In this document: piece after piece, positions 39,001-42,000 of the stretch
Layout: each line of letters opens with the position of its first letter
How positions within the stretch are numbered: the stretch's first letter is position 1
Assembly: GCF_002087085.1 (NCBI RefSeq)
Contig: NZ_MWQY01000004.1
Coordinates: forward strand, 124,001 to 188,000
Direction: 5' to 3'
Length of the DNA stretch: 64,000 nucleotides
Position numbers: made by a program

Positions 39001-42000
39001 TCTTTGACGCCGGCGTATTTCGTGAATTGCGGCCCAAGGGGCCCCTGGATCGGACTGCCGAAATAGACGGACTGGCGCTGGAAGGATTGGTAATGCAGCA
39101 TCTGTATGCCTGGGCGGATTACTCCCGTCGGGACTGCCGAATCTACTACTGGCGGACCAAATCGGGAACTGAGGTGGATTTTGTCCTTTACGGTCAGGAT
39201 ACCTTTGCAGCGATGGAAGTAAAGAATTCCCGACAGGTGCACAGTAAGGATCTTAAAAGCTTGAAGGCATTTACAGAGGATTATCCGGAAGCTCAGCCTC
39301 TTCTGCTGTACCGAGGAAAGGAAAACCTGAAAATTGACGGCATCGTGTGTATCCCCTGGAACAGTTTTCTGGAGAACCTCAGGGTCGGAAGTCCCCTGTT
39401 TCAGGTGTAGAAGTGTACAGGTATTTTAAACCACGCTGTTTTCCAAAAGCAGAACGGAGTTATCAAAGTCTGTGTTCTGTACGGATGCAGCCAGGGCCCG
39501 ATCAAAGGTAACCAAAGTCCCTCTCCTGTTTTTTGCCAGGAGTATGAGGTGGGCATCGCTAACCTGCCTGTGCCCCTGCAGCATGGAGGCAGGCAGCTTA
39601 GAAAAGGCCGAAACCGGCACATCGTCGGACCAGAACCGGTGAGACGGATGAGCTGAATATCTTTCCAGTATATTCAGAGCCTCCTCCGGGGATACCGCTT
39701 CGTCGATAATACGCGGATTGGAAGATATTCTGACGAAAGCCAGCTGTGTCAGAGGAGATGTCGCCCAGAATTCACCATTCTGAACGATAGTTTCAGCAAA
39801 CCAGGAATGGGCAACACCGTGGTGGAGATGGTTTGGCCATGCCAGGGCAATCAACACATTTACATCGGGCAGGAAGATCACACCTCATCCTCGAAAGAAG
39901 CCACATCCTCGGGGGTTATTCGCCGGGAATCCTCAGCCACCGAGAAAACCGGCAGACCGTTTTTCAGGGAGTATTCCACCTTTGAACCCAGTCCTCGCCG
40001 CATTAAAACGGAGACCGCCTGCCCCAGGGAAATCCCCTGCTCCCTGGCAATACTGCGGGCGACCTTTACAAGGTCATCGTCTATATTTATGGTGGTTCTC
40101 ATACATAAAAAAATAAGAGCTTGATGCTCTGATGTCAAGATGCCGACACATCATTAATGTTGGATTCATATACACGGAGGAAGCGCTTCTCTTCCTGAGA
40201 CACGGCAAAAATACAAGGTTTTCAAAGGCGCTATTATTGACAAAAACCCGTGTTTCCCATAGAATCCGCCTTACTGAATGCCCAGATGGCGGAATTGGTA
40301 GACGCGCTAGATTCAGGTTCTAGTCCGGGTTACCGGGTGGAGGTTCAAGTCCTCTTCTGGGCAAAAAAGACCGATGACCTTTAGGTTGTCGGTCTTTTTT
40401 TGTGCACAGAGAGGGGACTTGAACCTCCGAGTGAGCGCGGCGCGATGAGCGCCGGAAGTCCGGCAGGGATGCCGGACGCCAGCGAACGAAGGCGGGGTGT
40501 AAGGAGCCGGTACGATACCGGCGACTGAAACCTTCAAGTCCTCTTCTGGGCAAAAAAGACCGATGAACTTTAGGTTGTCGGTCTTTTTTTGTGCATAGAG
40601 AGGGGACTTGAACCTCCGAGTGAGCGCGGCGCGAGTAGCGCCGGAAGCGAGGCACGATGCCGGACGCCAGCGAACGAGGGCGGGGTGCAAGGAGGAATCA
40701 GGATGATTCCGACTGAAACCTTCAAGTCCTATTTTCAGACAACACCATTATATTCTGACCACGTCTTGCTTCATATCGGATCTCCAGATCGTAGCCCGAT
40801 TCTTACCGCCTGACTTGGAGGCATACATGGCCTTATCAGCCCTGTCGAGTATATCCTCCAGGGTGGTCTCGTCGCTGCCGTCATACACGATTATTCCTAT
40901 GCTCAGAGTCACCGACATCTCCGCACCGCTATTGATCCGCGGCGGTATGGCCGATACGTATCTCCTTGCCAGCTCAAGGGCGTGGGTCTCATCGGTTTGA
41001 AAGGGCATGACAACAAATTCGTCTCCTCCGTAGCGGGCAACGACGTCTCCGCCGCGAGACAGTTCAACAAGAGTACCGGCGGTTTTCCTGAGCACGTCAT
41101 CTCCAGCTAAATGACCCATATTGTCGTTCACAGCTTTGAAATTGTCCAGATCGATCAGGATCATGGAGAAGGGAGAACCGTTTCTCTGAGAACGGACGAA
41201 TTCCCTCCTCGCCTGCTCGAAGAAGCTCCAGCGGTTTAACAGTCCCGTCAGAGCATCGGTGCCGGCAATCTCTTTGAGCTGCTCATAGGCATCAGACAGC
41301 TTCTTCTCGGTATCCTTTTGCGCGGTTATGTCGTGAAAATGCAGGATTAGCCCTTCGCCCATGTTGCCGGGAGAAACCAGAGGAGCAGAGCTGATCTCAT
41401 ATAAACGGCCGTTCAGCCGCATCTCGACAGATCCTGTGCGGTCTTTCGTGATCAGCTCACCTGCCCTTTCCGTCAGGCCTTCGAGGGATTTGCCGATGGC
41501 TTTCAGATGGGTGACGGAAAAGATCCTCTCCGCTTCCGGATTGAGGTCCAGTATCTTCTTTGAGCTGTCCAGGACCAGAACACCGCTCTTCATATTTTGG
41601 AAGACCGAATGATAGGCCACGGGAACCACATCGAAAAAGCGGTACCTTAAGATGCCCAGACCTATGAGCAGCGCGCTCAGCGCAAAGAAAAGAGATGATG
41701 GATCATAGGGTGTTATCAAATTAATTCCCATCAGGTAGAGGAGGTTCGGAACCGTGGGGAGAATGGCTGCCGTCAGAAGCAGAGAAATCCGGTACTTGTA
41801 ATGCTTGGGAAAGCGTACCATGGCCCGGATCAGAAGAATACTGCTGGAGACAATGACTGCATAGGCGTAAATAGCCCAGATCCAGAAAAGGGGACCGTAT
41901 CGGCGAGCCAAAACCCACAGTCCATTTACCTGTACAAGCTCCAACGATGTATAGAACCAGGGGTGCCAGGAAAAGGTCATCACTCCCAAAAACGAGACTG

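Follow-up and report, generated by a model that had tools for sequence, protein, structure and literature searches.

Structured gene-less units behind spirochaete tRNA genes carry a copy and a complement of the tRNA 3′ end

The locus described here lies in a window of 64,000 nt, the whole stretch of DNA that was analysed, in which the gene for tRNA-Leu(CAG) (40279..40364, + strand; ARAGORN; Rfam RF00005, 55.3 bits) is followed by two copies of a structured element and a convergent protein gene. A candidate promoter of the tRNA gene, TTGACA-17 nt-TAGAAT, lies 14 nt 5′ of it (40237..40265, + strand; 11/12 consensus matches), and a promoter scan of the window found no promoter-like site between tRNA-Leu(CAG) and the elements. 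Directly behind the tRNA stands terminator hairpin 1 (40365..40401, + strand), read from the sequence as an A-run, an 11-bp stem including two G·T pairs and a T-run; it was flagged by a hairpin-plus-T-run scan and missed by a second terminator scan. Element copy 1 (40402..40552, + strand; 133.5 bits with covariance model R1; RNA fold −80.1 kcal/mol, z −6.84) begins with IRL1 (40403..40428, + strand), an inverted copy of the tRNA T-arm and acceptor 3′ strand (14-nt exact inverted match) that forms the 5′ strand of the closing helix P1. It ends with DR1 (40533..40552, + strand), the 3′ strand of P1 and an exact direct copy of the last 20 nt of the tRNA (21-nt 100% match to 40344-40364); the sequence repeated in the elements thus comprises these 20 nt of tRNA-Leu(CAG), from the T-loop to the discriminator. 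The tRNA 3′ end, terminator hairpin 1 and IRL1 form one long palindrome, which is spanned in its entirety by a spurious miRNA match in the Rfam search (40340-40427).

Terminator hairpin 2 (40553..40590, + strand; sequence reading and alignment), with one mismatch to hairpin 1, leads to element copy 2 (40591..40739, + strand; R1, 126.7 bits), whose core is 81% identical to that of copy 1. The block from DR through terminator and IRL into P2 is near-identical between copies 1 and 2, though the cores differ. DR2 (40721..40739, + strand) is a degenerate copy of the tRNA 3′ end, matching over 10 nt and divergent thereafter; the statement of the initial annotation that the last nucleotides of each copy repeat the 3′ end of its own tRNA therefore holds generally, but only in part for copy 2. 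DR2 is probably the oldest, displaced tRNA 3′ end, and a similar decayed stretch is found at the corresponding position in the related genome G004. The convergent gene, which encodes a 7TM-PAS-GGDEF diguanylate cyclase (40748..42340, − strand), has its stop 9 nt from copy 2 and is the fixed right border of the variable region, with orthologues in G001, G003 and G004. Tandem Repeats Finder reported no repeat in 40000-41000, because the two units are too dissimilar, and the array was read directly from the sequence.

The element is a non-coding, ORF-less, GC-rich unit of 135–190 nt with a conserved core of about 100 nt. Iterated nhmmer across the whole genome (G000) independently recovered the nine copies, and no other sites, at which a structured element trailing tRNA genes had been described before. 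First copies lie 21–45 nt and second copies 212–226 nt behind a co-oriented tRNA; the copy on contig C7 is situated 63 nt from the start of a contig without a tRNA, and the Ser-CGA copy carries an additional 46-nt insert behind the IRL. Model R1 detected 77 copies in relatives, with positive genomes making up 18/41 of the class sample and 10/151 of the phylum sample (G000 being counted in both). Carrier genomes hold between 1 and 10 copies, and members of one genus hold 3, 6, 8, 5 and 10 compared with nine in G000. The copies are located behind about 20 tRNA species, behind tmRNA (the occupied genes being at loci L053 and L018) and within tRNA and rRNA operons, and no single locus is retained in all carriers. 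All but four of the 77 copies follow a tRNA or tmRNA gene, a fragment of a tRNA, or a further unit; the four are L074, which is a partial copy, and three that lie at the end of a contig or locus. The element appears to be confined to spirochaetes. Searches of Rfam 15, with its models of tRNA-like structures, ribozymes and transposon guide RNAs, at E-value limits of 10 and 1 matched only the tRNAs, the remainder being sub-threshold chance matches to miRNA or leader models; there is no Rfam family for a second repeat family (X) either, and neither ARAGORN nor Rfam detected a tRNA-like fold inside the element. Full-text literature searches retrieved no published description of the element or of anything similar. 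The short palindrome behind tRNA genes of Methanopyrus (PMC5217627) is unrelated.

The ends of the units are fitted to the tRNA in front, as the initial annotation had proposed. Among the 52 of 77 copies located no more than 60 nt behind an ARAGORN tRNA, the longest exact match between DR and the 3′ end of the own tRNA has a median of 17 nt (range 4–21), compared with 5 nt for other tRNAs (95th percentile 8), and the own tRNA is best or tied in 46/52. The exact inverted match of the IRL has a median of 11 nt with the own tRNA and 5 nt with others (95th percentile 11), the own tRNA being best or tied in 35/52. Recomputation of the IRL:DR helix P1, with pairing lengths of 7–25 bp, agrees with the earlier observation that the two ends join in a duplex whose sequence is that of the tRNA 3′ end. 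The DR starts in the conserved T-loop (positions 54–60), at points that vary among families, and the target repeat comprises 15–21 nt or longer and may include the terminator. Because the DR reaches into the 3′ flank of the gene (by 9 nt at Gly-CCC and 6 nt at Ala-UGC, and through the whole terminator at the Leu-GAG locus L034) and never contains CCA, it copies the gene and not the mature tRNA. One Ser-GCU copy combines an IRL of the Ser-UGA type with the DR of its own tRNA; the DR is determined locally, whereas the IRL is inherited and can lag. The left end of the element is tRNA-specific and not conserved, and a fixed motif ahead of the unit is absent; small derivatives of the IS200/IS605 type would be expected to have conserved subterminal hairpins on both sides and to lie 3′ of a fixed tetra- or pentanucleotide. 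As in genomic islands, the inserts occupy the 3′ portion of tRNA or tmRNA genes and are flanked by a direct repeat that restores the gene.

RNAalifold applied to eight distinct copies reproduced exactly the earlier count of 32 pairs, 22 of them with compensatory change. The conserved core is structured, as previously stated, but its ‘four hairpins’ are better drawn as a three-way junction and one long hairpin, P5, the whole fold being closed by P1. The junction is made up of Px, a newly added, covarying long-range helix with tandem G·A pairs, of P2 with a GNNNA loop, and of P3, which has a C-A-S-G-A-N-G loop in common with P5. The tandem G·A pairs, the GNNNA loops and the two identical hairpin loops are conserved across families. 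In the refined structure, 70.8% of cells are paired, compared with 32–39% when partners are slid; double-change cells number 722 versus 101–160 when slid, and the observed value was reached by 0 of 500 shuffles. At the level of the family, the fold is under selection. Across the six closest pairs of copies from the same locus, by contrast, the single changes seen at paired positions comprise 16 pair-breaking, 4 pair-keeping and 1 compensatory change, in line with decay. Within Px, P2, P3 and P5, G·A/A·G oppositions outnumber pyrimidine–pyrimidine oppositions by 563 to 32, and this purine–purine excess identifies the tRNA-sense strand as the folding strand. It was used to assign the strand since wobble pairs do not decide the matter: the first structure has 71 G·U versus 76 A·C, and the core helices of the refined structure have 56 G·U versus 36 A·C, a weak strand bias that is compatible with RNA or no RNA alike, neither supporting nor excluding it.

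With respect to transcription, 50/77 copies are situated behind a terminator and not in front of one. A co-oriented tRNA follows within 120 nt downstream of 17/77 copies, 15 of which have no terminator in front and some of which have gaps of only 0–2 nt; for these copies, co-transcription must follow. The layout tRNA-element-tRNA with gaps of 0–2 nt in Ser-tRNA operons recurs in several families, and copies in the 16S-23S spacer lie between tRNA-Ala and 23S rRNA; both fit long retention and certain transcription, as expected for a host RNA. Among the contigs of three RNA libraries, two with a depth of 2–3, each possibly DNA carry-over and of either strand, map to the locus in the window. One, of 151 nt, takes in some of the core together with the flank downstream, in a one-unit form that skips 188 nt; the other, of 188 nt, runs from the end of copy 2 into the convergent gene. 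The stretches that no contig covers carry no weight either way.

In their behaviour the copies resemble insertions. The units occur in tandem arrays, often with a partial unit at the end, and both species and members of a population differ in how many units they have and in what order. The tRNA-Val-CAC site lacks an insert in G000, and G003 has one there with clean borders. At Gly-CCC, G004 lacks an intact element, and in G002 one precedes the terminator which in G004 comes straight after the tRNA. Two unlike units at Ala-CGC (63% mutual identity) are arranged in opposite order in G000 and G002, with cross-identities of 91–92% between the swapped units and support for this pairing from the tree; in G001 and G005, the gene upstream of Ala-CGC is present and the tRNA is absent. 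Between G000 and G002, identity stands at 99% in the Gly core and at 80–82% in the flanking genes. Along the core tree, the tRNA label changes 37 times, against a minimum possible of 20 and a shuffled-label mean of 52.7. Copies decay where they stand, with R1 scores descending from 150 to 25 bits, and some are truncated or interrupted by other inserts: one is split in P3, where a HigB/HTH pair has inserted with a short repeat at its borders, and another is truncated beside a DUF5615/DUF433 pair. Single cores are flanked by repeated blocks whose length varies (from the DR through the IRL and a further 1 to 35 nt), and the same tRNA loci also hold larger inserts and longer displaced tRNA fragments. 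Neither an excised form nor a fresh insertion was seen; tandem arrays hold the same junction as a rejoined circle would.

The design is not confined to one core. Besides the element, at least three or four unrelated core families with the IRL-core-DR design are present in the same genome, and unrelated cores in the layout complement-core-DR are located behind Pro-UGG, Arg-UCU, Asn-GUU, Leu-CAA, Cys-GCA, Val-CAC and Arg-CCU. Six unrelated modules were folded and yielded z values from −2.3 to −4.3. Genome-wide, a direct copy of the tRNA end within 1.5 kb was found downstream of 8/48 tRNAs versus upstream of 1/48. That the design is common to unrelated cores speaks for an insertion route used by all of them rather than for one RNA with one function.

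The ORFs of at least 160 aa within 1.5 kb of the element at 20 loci numbered 62, of which 50 were considered; the other 12 were frames over the tRNA/element region or overlapped a longer frame. None of the 50 encodes a recombinase or transposase, in agreement with the initial annotation, which had linked no recombinase to the element, and no autonomous partner, at which no search was specifically aimed, was seen adjoining the copies at these loci. The ORF-less unit contains no integrase gene, and neither does the 9.4-kb insert of G003; a partial integrase is located about 1.1 kb beyond the element in G002. A reverse transcriptase (PF00078) is encoded by 12/41 genomes, comprising 9/18 carriers of the element and 3/23 non-carriers, and was rejected as a requirement as it was not found in the other 9/18 carriers. 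Phage_integrase (PF00589) is uninformative because it is present in 41/41 genomes. For the integron integrase, an association was seen in the class sample (10/18 element-carrying versus 4/23 element-free genomes) and failed in the phylum sample (2/9 versus 13/141). The integron integrase of G000 scores 394 bits (cut-off 265) and has an attC array on the same contig, the sites of which are 170-nt repeats with ACATAAC and GTTATGT boxes, unrelated to the element. Viral contigs gave 0 matches to one exact pattern from one subfamily, which distant copies may escape; phage records contained no match, and plasmid records a single 39-nt match on a Paraburkholderia replicon, covering 27% of the query and at chance level.

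We tentatively propose, giving this reading somewhat less than an even chance, that the element represents a family of small cassettes without genes, which enter at the tRNA T-loop and are mobilised in trans. This reading draws on the DR that is fitted to the own tRNA and reaches into the flank without CCA, on the use of tmRNA genes, on the gain, loss and reshuffling of units, on their spread over many tRNA targets, on decay, on the fold selected at family level in the tRNA-sense strand, and on the design common to unrelated cores. Counted from the T-loop, a unit consists of a copy of the last 15–21 nt of the tRNA that serves to complete the gene, usually a terminator, the IRL and the core, with the DR behind the unit. 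In this hypothetical scenario, a unit would enter by recombination at the T-loop, which would keep the tRNA intact and leave the displaced 3′ end behind as DR. As 140–190 bp are hard to circularise as a duplex, the moving form is probably a folded single strand, in which IRL:DR would rebuild a duplex copy of the target, similar to attC and to the CTX attachment hairpin, and the recombining enzyme would act in trans. A jump to a different tRNA would at first introduce a foreign 3′ end, and an extra step would be needed, candidates being conversion with the DR as donor or a crossover at the distal end. Because many copies are transcribed within tRNA and rRNA operons, the IRL:DR helix probably masks the decoy 3′ end, which would thereby be hidden from the tRNA-folding and processing machinery. 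The conserved unpaired loops and junctions are more than a mere insert needs, and they count against the cassette reading, as do the searches that revealed no linked or co-occurring enzyme, the failure to see an excised form or fresh insertion, the extra step needed for a jump between tRNAs, and the recurrent Ser-tRNA operon layout and 16S-23S spacer copies. In a wider version, which we regard as rather unlikely, the T-loops of spirochaete tRNA and tmRNA genes would be docking sites for a guild of protein-less structured cassettes, formed by the element together with the unrelated core families, each rebuilding the target duplex from an inherited inverted copy and a target-derived repeat and moved as folded single strands by a host or trans-acting activity; this guild, with the tRNA gene as platform for a logic like that of integrons or CTX, would constitute a new class of site-specific mobile element.

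The initial annotation had considered both old insertions and a cellular role, and both still have to be weighed. The element could be a host non-coding RNA that is part of tRNA or rRNA operon transcripts and is released by tRNA-processing enzymes, its tRNA-like 3′ end maturing like the tRNA in front and its conserved loops binding a protein or forming a tertiary fold with a cellular role. We consider this somewhat unlikely. The co-transcribed copies ahead of a further tRNA, those between tRNA-Ala and 23S rRNA, the folding of the tRNA-sense strand, the retention of tandem G·A pairs, GNNNA loops and identical hairpin loops across families, and the better conservation of some copies relative to adjoining genes all argue for it. 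However, the majority of copies stand behind a terminator, with no promoter-like site found between tRNA-Leu(CAG) and its two copies; presence is patchy, with 1–10 copies per carrier and no locus that all carriers retain; decay, truncation or interruption affects many copies; and one RNA function leaves unexplained why unrelated cores have the same end design. This common design is consistent with a passive by-product without enzyme or function, in which template switching and unequal recombination at near-identical T-arms and palindromic terminators make the copies and arrays and spread them, and the fold is kept only to hide the decoy 3′ end in a transcribed operon, so that tRNA maturation stays undisturbed. 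The searches for ORFs, reverse transcriptase and integron integrase, which revealed no linked or co-occurring enzyme, point in the same direction, as do the variable DR start within the conserved T-loop, the palindrome of tRNA end, terminator and IRL, the variable-length blocks flanking single cores, and the near-identical DR-to-P2 block within an array of differing cores. Such a process would explain neither the origin of the core families nor a 99% identical copy in two species, and the unpaired loops and junctions conserved across classes of the phylum exceed the need of an inert insert; we regard it as distinctly unlikely.

Two further explanations start from known mobile elements. The element might be a relic of islands or prophages with an integrase that once occupied these tRNA genes and lost their interior, so that the two attachment arms, left and right, fused into a cis-mobilisable remnant. 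The tRNA 3′ end present as a direct repeat and tmRNA serving as a target form an island signature, the same loci carry larger inserts and longer displaced tRNA fragments, and the partial integrase in G002 lies nearby. Nevertheless, a full-size element with element halves at both ends was not found, the only split copy being the insertion into P3; the viral contigs (exact pattern) and phage records provided no match and the plasmid records only that of 39 nt; and attachment arms are protein-binding duplex DNA, for which 722 compensatory cells are unexpected. We regard a relic as very improbable. Hardly probable at all is that the resident integron integrase moves the units as atypical integron cassettes or attC-like sites, with the T-loop as a secondary attI-like site. 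The integrase and attC array of G000, the distribution in the class sample and the traits in common with attC (units in tandem and without ORFs, a single strand that folds with its ends paired, and diverse sequence with constant design) are in line with this view. Against it, only two of nine carriers in the phylum sample have the integrase, five of those lacking it being 92–99% complete; the element has no R boxes, its GAAAC motif agreeing only in AAC and GTT being absent on the 3′ side; the attC sites of the genome itself are unrelated; and the integron is 120 kb distant.

Genes for tRNAs are classical landing sites of large islands that carry their own integrase, and tmRNA genes are a classical island target. 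Islands with a tyrosine integrase and T-loop sublocation resemble the element in their tRNA and tmRNA targets, in an identity block from the T-loop to the 3′ end and beyond, in an insert that restores the gene, in the displaced 3′ end as direct repeat, and in tandem accretion. Tandem accretion at one gene is reported for ssrA islands in Dehalococcoides (PMC3146451). In contrast to such islands, the element measures 135–190 nt rather than kilobases, has neither integrase nor genes, and contains an internal inverted target copy and a covarying folded core. Integron cassette arrays likewise consist of tandem units with paired inverted ends folding as a single strand, comprise many families of one design, have toxin-antitoxin pairs nearby and include ORF-less units. 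Unlike attC, however, the element lacks the RYYYAAC (R″) and GTTRRRY (R′) boxes, GGARRS replacing GTT in the 77-copy alignment; it lies at tRNA genes and not beside intI/attI, the integrase does not track it, and what lies between its paired ends is a conserved core, not a variable one. CTX-phage type elements carry two inverted target sites separated by about 100 nt, which pair with each other in single-stranded DNA and restore a target duplex; that target is dif, recombined by XerCD. Pairing inverted target copies, tandem arrays and the lack of an own recombinase are common to these and the element, whereas the target of the latter is the tRNA or tmRNA T-arm instead of dif, and it has no replication or structural genes. 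MITEs, REP/BIME and palindrome-associated elements are also small, non-coding, GC-rich, hairpin-forming and repeated, with inverted ends. In contrast to MITEs, the ends of the element copy the neighbouring gene and not a transposase site, and with strict site specificity and 1–10 copies per genome it is not dispersed over many unrelated sites. Finally, several RNAs are cut from tRNA precursors, among them 3′ external transcribed spacer small RNAs, tRNA-linked snoRNAs and mascRNA. The element resembles these in its co-oriented position directly behind a tRNA and in its co-transcription at some loci, and differs in that most copies lie behind a terminator and the tRNA 3′ end is duplicated in the DNA.

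A landing site of islands is used here by elements a hundred times smaller, gene-less, and with a covarying fold that rebuilds the target. In spirochaete genomes, the element accounts for variable regions, for spurious ORFs and for assemblies that break at tRNA loci, and it offers a clean system for understanding how a duplicated tRNA end stays harmless in a transcript. If it is an RNA, it would represent a new phylum-restricted RNA family from tRNA and rRNA operons. If it moves as proposed, the units would be the smallest site-specific integrative elements known and would point to an activity that recombines at tRNA T-loops.

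At the leucine locus of the window, a promoter-like site (40237-40265) precedes tRNA-Leu(CAG) (40279-40364), which is followed by a terminator made of an A-run, a hairpin and a T-run (40365-40401), a first copy of the non-coding element E (40402-40552), a second terminator with one mismatch to the first (40553-40590) and a second copy of E (40591-40739). The stop of a convergent 7TM-PAS-GGDEF gene lies 9 bases past the second copy, and no promoter-like site belonging to the E copies themselves was found in the window. The first copy closes with a direct repeat (DR), an exact 20-nt repeat of the last 20 nt of the tRNA, and opens with an inverted copy (IRL) of its entire T-arm and acceptor 3′ strand, so that tRNA end, terminator and IRL form a single long palindrome. 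A plant miRNA model match at this locus was triggered by that palindrome and was rejected as chance. Alternatively, IRL and DR of the first copy pair with each other and close the element, giving an RNA fold of -80.1 kcal/mol (z -6.84). The DR of the second copy matches the tRNA end over 10 nt and diverges beyond. As G004, the closest relative, has a similar decayed stretch at this position, this DR is probably the oldest of the displaced tRNA ends. Between the two units the block from the DR into helix P2 is near-identical, and the remaining cores are ~80% identical.

Further forms of this locus were seen elsewhere. A 151-nt metatranscriptome contig from a public RNA library, which may be DNA carry-over, joins window positions 40425-40490 to 40679-40763 with 0-1 other letters; it corresponds to a one-unit form of the array with 188 nt skipped and, judged by its sequence, shows that array copy number varies in nature. 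The orthologous locus of G004 (L047, G004:C6:3900-5700) is 1.4 kb long and holds, in order, a short E variant, a run of N, a unit of another repeat family (X, described below), an intact E and a truncated E fused to a DUF5615/DUF433 gene pair, ending in a decayed 45-nt tRNA-Leu 3′ half that adjoins the conserved downstream gene. In the relative G003 (L046, G003:C422:254500-264400), ~9.4 kb separate the tRNA-Leu/E array from that downstream gene and encode a nitroreductase, a metallo-beta-lactamase-fold protein, an FMN reductase, Fe-S proteins, a LuxR-type regulator and a DUF4258 protein; no integrase was found in this insert.

The initial annotation had named nine copies of E in this genome, and an iterated nhmmer search of the 4.2-Mb assembly returned the same nine; its count of 32 base pairs, 22 with compensatory change, was reproduced by RNAalifold on the eight distinct copies. 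R1, a covariance model built from the copies of this genome, matches in 18 of 41 genomes of a class sample and in 10 of 151 genomes of a phylum sample, the genome under study being counted in both. An exact pattern of the core matched 21 stretches among 185,579 species genomes, 20 of which R1 confirms; of these, 19 come from records with spirochaete or treponeme titles and one from a record titled only 'bacterium'. The unconfirmed match, in a Steroidobacteraceae record, has no adjoining tRNA.

Over 60 fetched stretches, R1 found 77 copies of E. Fifty-two lie at most 60 nt behind a co-oriented tRNA gene called by ARAGORN, and 16 lie further behind a tRNA, as second or third units, displaced by other inserts or, once, behind a tRNA that ARAGORN missed. 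Two copies follow tmRNA genes (Rfam, 158 and 152 bits), three follow tRNA 3′ fragments, three stand at contig or locus ends, and one partial copy has nothing adjoining. The tRNA hosts comprise about 20 anticodon species. How well the ends fit the host was scored on those 52 copies that have a tRNA directly in front. The longest exact match of the DR has a median of 17 nt to the end of its own tRNA vs 5 nt to other tRNAs (95th percentile 8), and the corresponding values for the IRL are 11 nt vs 5 nt (95th percentile 11); the own tRNA gave the best match, alone or tied, with 46 of 52 DRs but with only 35 of 52 IRLs. One Ser-GCU copy carries the DR of its own tRNA and the IRL of the neighbouring Ser-UGA copy. 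The DR is determined by the site; the IRL is inherited and adjusted later.

The DR may extend into the flank of the tRNA, by 9 nt at Gly-CCC, by 6 nt at Ala-UGC and over the whole 35-nt terminator at one Leu-GAG locus, and CCA is never present in it; the duplication is therefore one at gene level. Repeating units have the order DR, terminator, IRL, core. Several loci have a single core with a DR-terminator-IRL block on either side, the second block stopping 1 to ~35 nt into the core with no common motif at that point; we read these blocks as second units cut short. The copy on contig C7 is identical to that on C35. Before the former, within C7:1-63 and past a different terminator, stands a string of 12 nt that on C35 is found ahead of tRNA-Gly-CCC, but on C7 no tRNA follows it; the two contig ends may be one longer array split by assembly.

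Copy numbers within the genus vary (3, 6, 8, 5 and 10 vs 9 in the genome under study), and single sites differ between relatives. An otherwise collinear tRNA-Val-CAC locus holds E in G003 and is empty here. The Gly-CCC site of G004 shows nothing but remnants, which lie beyond the native terminator; in G002 an intact unit has been inserted ahead of that terminator. Two unlike units at Ala-CGC (63% mutual identity) stand in reversed order here and in G002, with cross-identities of 91-92%. The Gly core is 99% identical between these two genomes, although their genes next to another locus share 80-82% identity and the terminators adjoining E differ. A tree of 74 cores, itself weakly resolved, requires 37 changes of the tRNA label (minimum 20, shuffled mean 52.7) and 47 of the genome label (minimum 17, shuffled mean 57.3); the counts for the tRNA label indicate lineages that are partly faithful to a tRNA yet have switched many times. 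Copies also decay. R1 scores of the 77 copies span 150 down to 25 bits, one copy is cut off beside a DUF5615/DUF433 pair, and in the copy behind tRNA-Leu-UAA of another relative (L021, G026:C65, ~1640-2990) helix P3 is split by 1.3 kb of inserted DNA with genes for a HigB-like toxin and an HTH protein; a short repeat of the P3 strand borders this insert.

On the 77-copy alignment, a small hairpin of the automatic structure, P4, was exchanged for a long-range helix, Px, in which two conserved AGYGARCG octamers pair. Covariation is seen at the Watson-Crick positions of Px (at one pair U-A 21, C-G 18, G-C 6 and A-U 4) around a tandem G.A/A.G step, and in one subfamily the helix is wholly ordinary Watson-Crick. 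Because the alignment was fitted to a model without Px, this support is independent of the fitting. The fold thus consists of P1 (IRL with DR), a three-way junction of Px, P2 and P3, and a long hairpin P5; P2 has a GNNNA loop, P5 a 3×3 purine loop and a tandem G.A step, and P3 and P5 share an identical terminal loop, C-A-S-G-A-N-G. Standard pairs make up 70.8% vs 32-39% with partners slid, double-change cells number 722 vs 101-160, and none of 500 shuffles reached the observed values. Within Px, P2, P3 and P5, G.A/A.G oppositions outnumber pyrimidine-pyrimidine oppositions 563 to 32; as they would be pyrimidine mismatches on the opposite strand, the tRNA-sense strand is the one that folds. G.U and A.C oppositions (56 vs 36) complete the count, and the sequence would fit RNA or single-stranded DNA alike. 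The six closest pairs of same-locus copies have, at paired positions, 16 single changes that break pairing, some of them at non-canonical pairs, 4 that keep it and 1 that is compensatory. Compensatory doubles prevail in more distant pairs, and all 13 pairs together give 41 compensatory vs 10 broken doubles.

A hairpin and T-run separate the tRNA from E in 50 of the 77 copies. In 17 of 77 a co-oriented tRNA follows within 120 nt, and 15 of these 17 lack a terminator ahead of E. In several families the serine tRNA operon runs tRNA-E-tRNA, with gaps of 0-2 nt before E and 12-18 nt after it, and in the relative G005 three rRNA operons have E between tRNA-Ala and 23S rRNA; the genome under study has E on a short contig of the same kind. 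Copies inside tRNA and rRNA operons must be transcribed on the folding strand, while most others lie behind a terminator.

The best-supported reading sees in E a family of cassettes that carry no genes and have inserted into tRNA and tmRNA genes at the T-loop. Its anatomy, site specificity, gene-level duplication, arrays, turnover between species and single-copy decay are directly observed, and selection on the tRNA-sense fold is evident at the level of the family. We propose that a unit would enter by recombination at the T-loop, through a folded single-stranded intermediate and with the help of a trans-acting enzyme; such an intermediate is suggested because 140-190 bp are too short for an easy duplex circle and IRL:DR pairing rebuilds the target duplex. 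P1 could have a second role in concealing the decoy 3′ end in transcripts.

No candidate for such an enzyme emerged. Among 50 neighbouring ORFs at 20 loci there was no recombinase or transposase, the neighbours being housekeeping genes such as dnaX, parB, tig and tatC, and no reverse transcriptase was found in 9 of 18 E carriers. Tyrosine recombinases occur in every genome, and integron integrases are surprisingly common, exceeding the curated cut-off in 14 of 41 class genomes and 16 of 151 phylum-sample genomes. The contig of the window itself carries a chromosomal integron 120 kb before the window (C34:1-4070), with an integrase gene (C34:2826-4070; TIGR02249, 394 bits) and, upstream of it, small cassette ORFs, including a BrnT/antitoxin-like pair, together with at least three ~170-nt attC-like repeats whose boxes read ACATAAC and GTTATGT. 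The integrase is present in 10 of 18 E carriers vs 4 of 23 E-free genomes of the class sample, and in 2 of 9 vs 13 of 141 in the phylum sample; attC boxes are absent from E. A search of viral contigs with one exact pattern and a search of phage records gave no relatives of E, and plasmid records gave a single 39-nt match at chance level.

Counting against the cassette reading are this missing enzyme, the foreign 3′ end that a unit would bring on jumping to a new tRNA, the long persistence of E in essential operons and the conservation of its loops. These points keep two other readings viable: a role of E as a host RNA, which we consider rather unlikely, and an origin as a by-product of enzyme-free recombination, which seems to us quite improbable. 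Rfam contains no family matching E, and searches of the literature turned up no description of it. Islands integrating at tRNA genes, integron attC cassettes, the CTX-type folded attachment site and miniature repeats each have part of the design in common with E, but E lacks at least one defining feature of each. We rate the cassettes as belonging with site-specific insertion at tRNA genes, a known phenomenon; that they form a new class of protein-less structured cassette is unlikely.

The same design recurs around other cores. Across all 48 usable tRNA genes of the genome under study, a direct copy of the last 15 nt lies within 1.5 kb downstream of 8 and upstream of 1, and an inverted T-arm copy downstream of 13 vs upstream of 4. 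Apart from the E loci, these sites hold other small modules, alike in design but with cores of different origin. Modules of ~95-105 nt (C45:2856-3410, C16:8512-8761, C12:196608-196900) stand behind Pro-UGG and Arg-UCU (W, ~95 nt, with a common GCCAGUCCG motif) and, one each, behind Asn-GUU and Leu-CAA; they consist of an inverted T-arm copy, two hairpins and a direct tRNA-end copy, and their cores are unrelated to E. Y, a 79-nt unit of a hairpin, ~30 nt and a 15-nt tRNA-end copy, occurs three times behind Cys-GCA and once behind Val-CAC (C12:115611-115850, C35:7358-7434); in G003 an E unit sits between tRNA-Val and the Y unit. X is a structured repeat of ~85 nt with no match in Rfam. Behind Arg-CCU it forms four tandem units of ~135 nt (C12:225338-225822), in which a copy of the T-arm is embedded as well as the acceptor strand and its complement. 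X also occurs singly: in G002 and G004 between tRNA-Leu and the terminator of that gene (X was seen in the stretches L047, L048, L049 and L050), inside hairpin P5 of one E copy in the relative G001, and before a terminator with no tRNA close by (C31:11587-11669). Six folded modules gave z values of -2.3 to -4.3. The predicted folds of the W and Leu-CAA modules are closed by IRL:DR pairing and that of the X unit by the acceptor-strand copy and its complement; the minimum-energy folds of the Asn-GUU and Y (Cys-GCA) modules do not use the IRL:DR closing pair. As unrelated cores share it, the arrangement of complement, core and tRNA-end copy is no trait of a single RNA but belongs to whatever inserts at tRNA ends, or to the requirements for being tolerated there.
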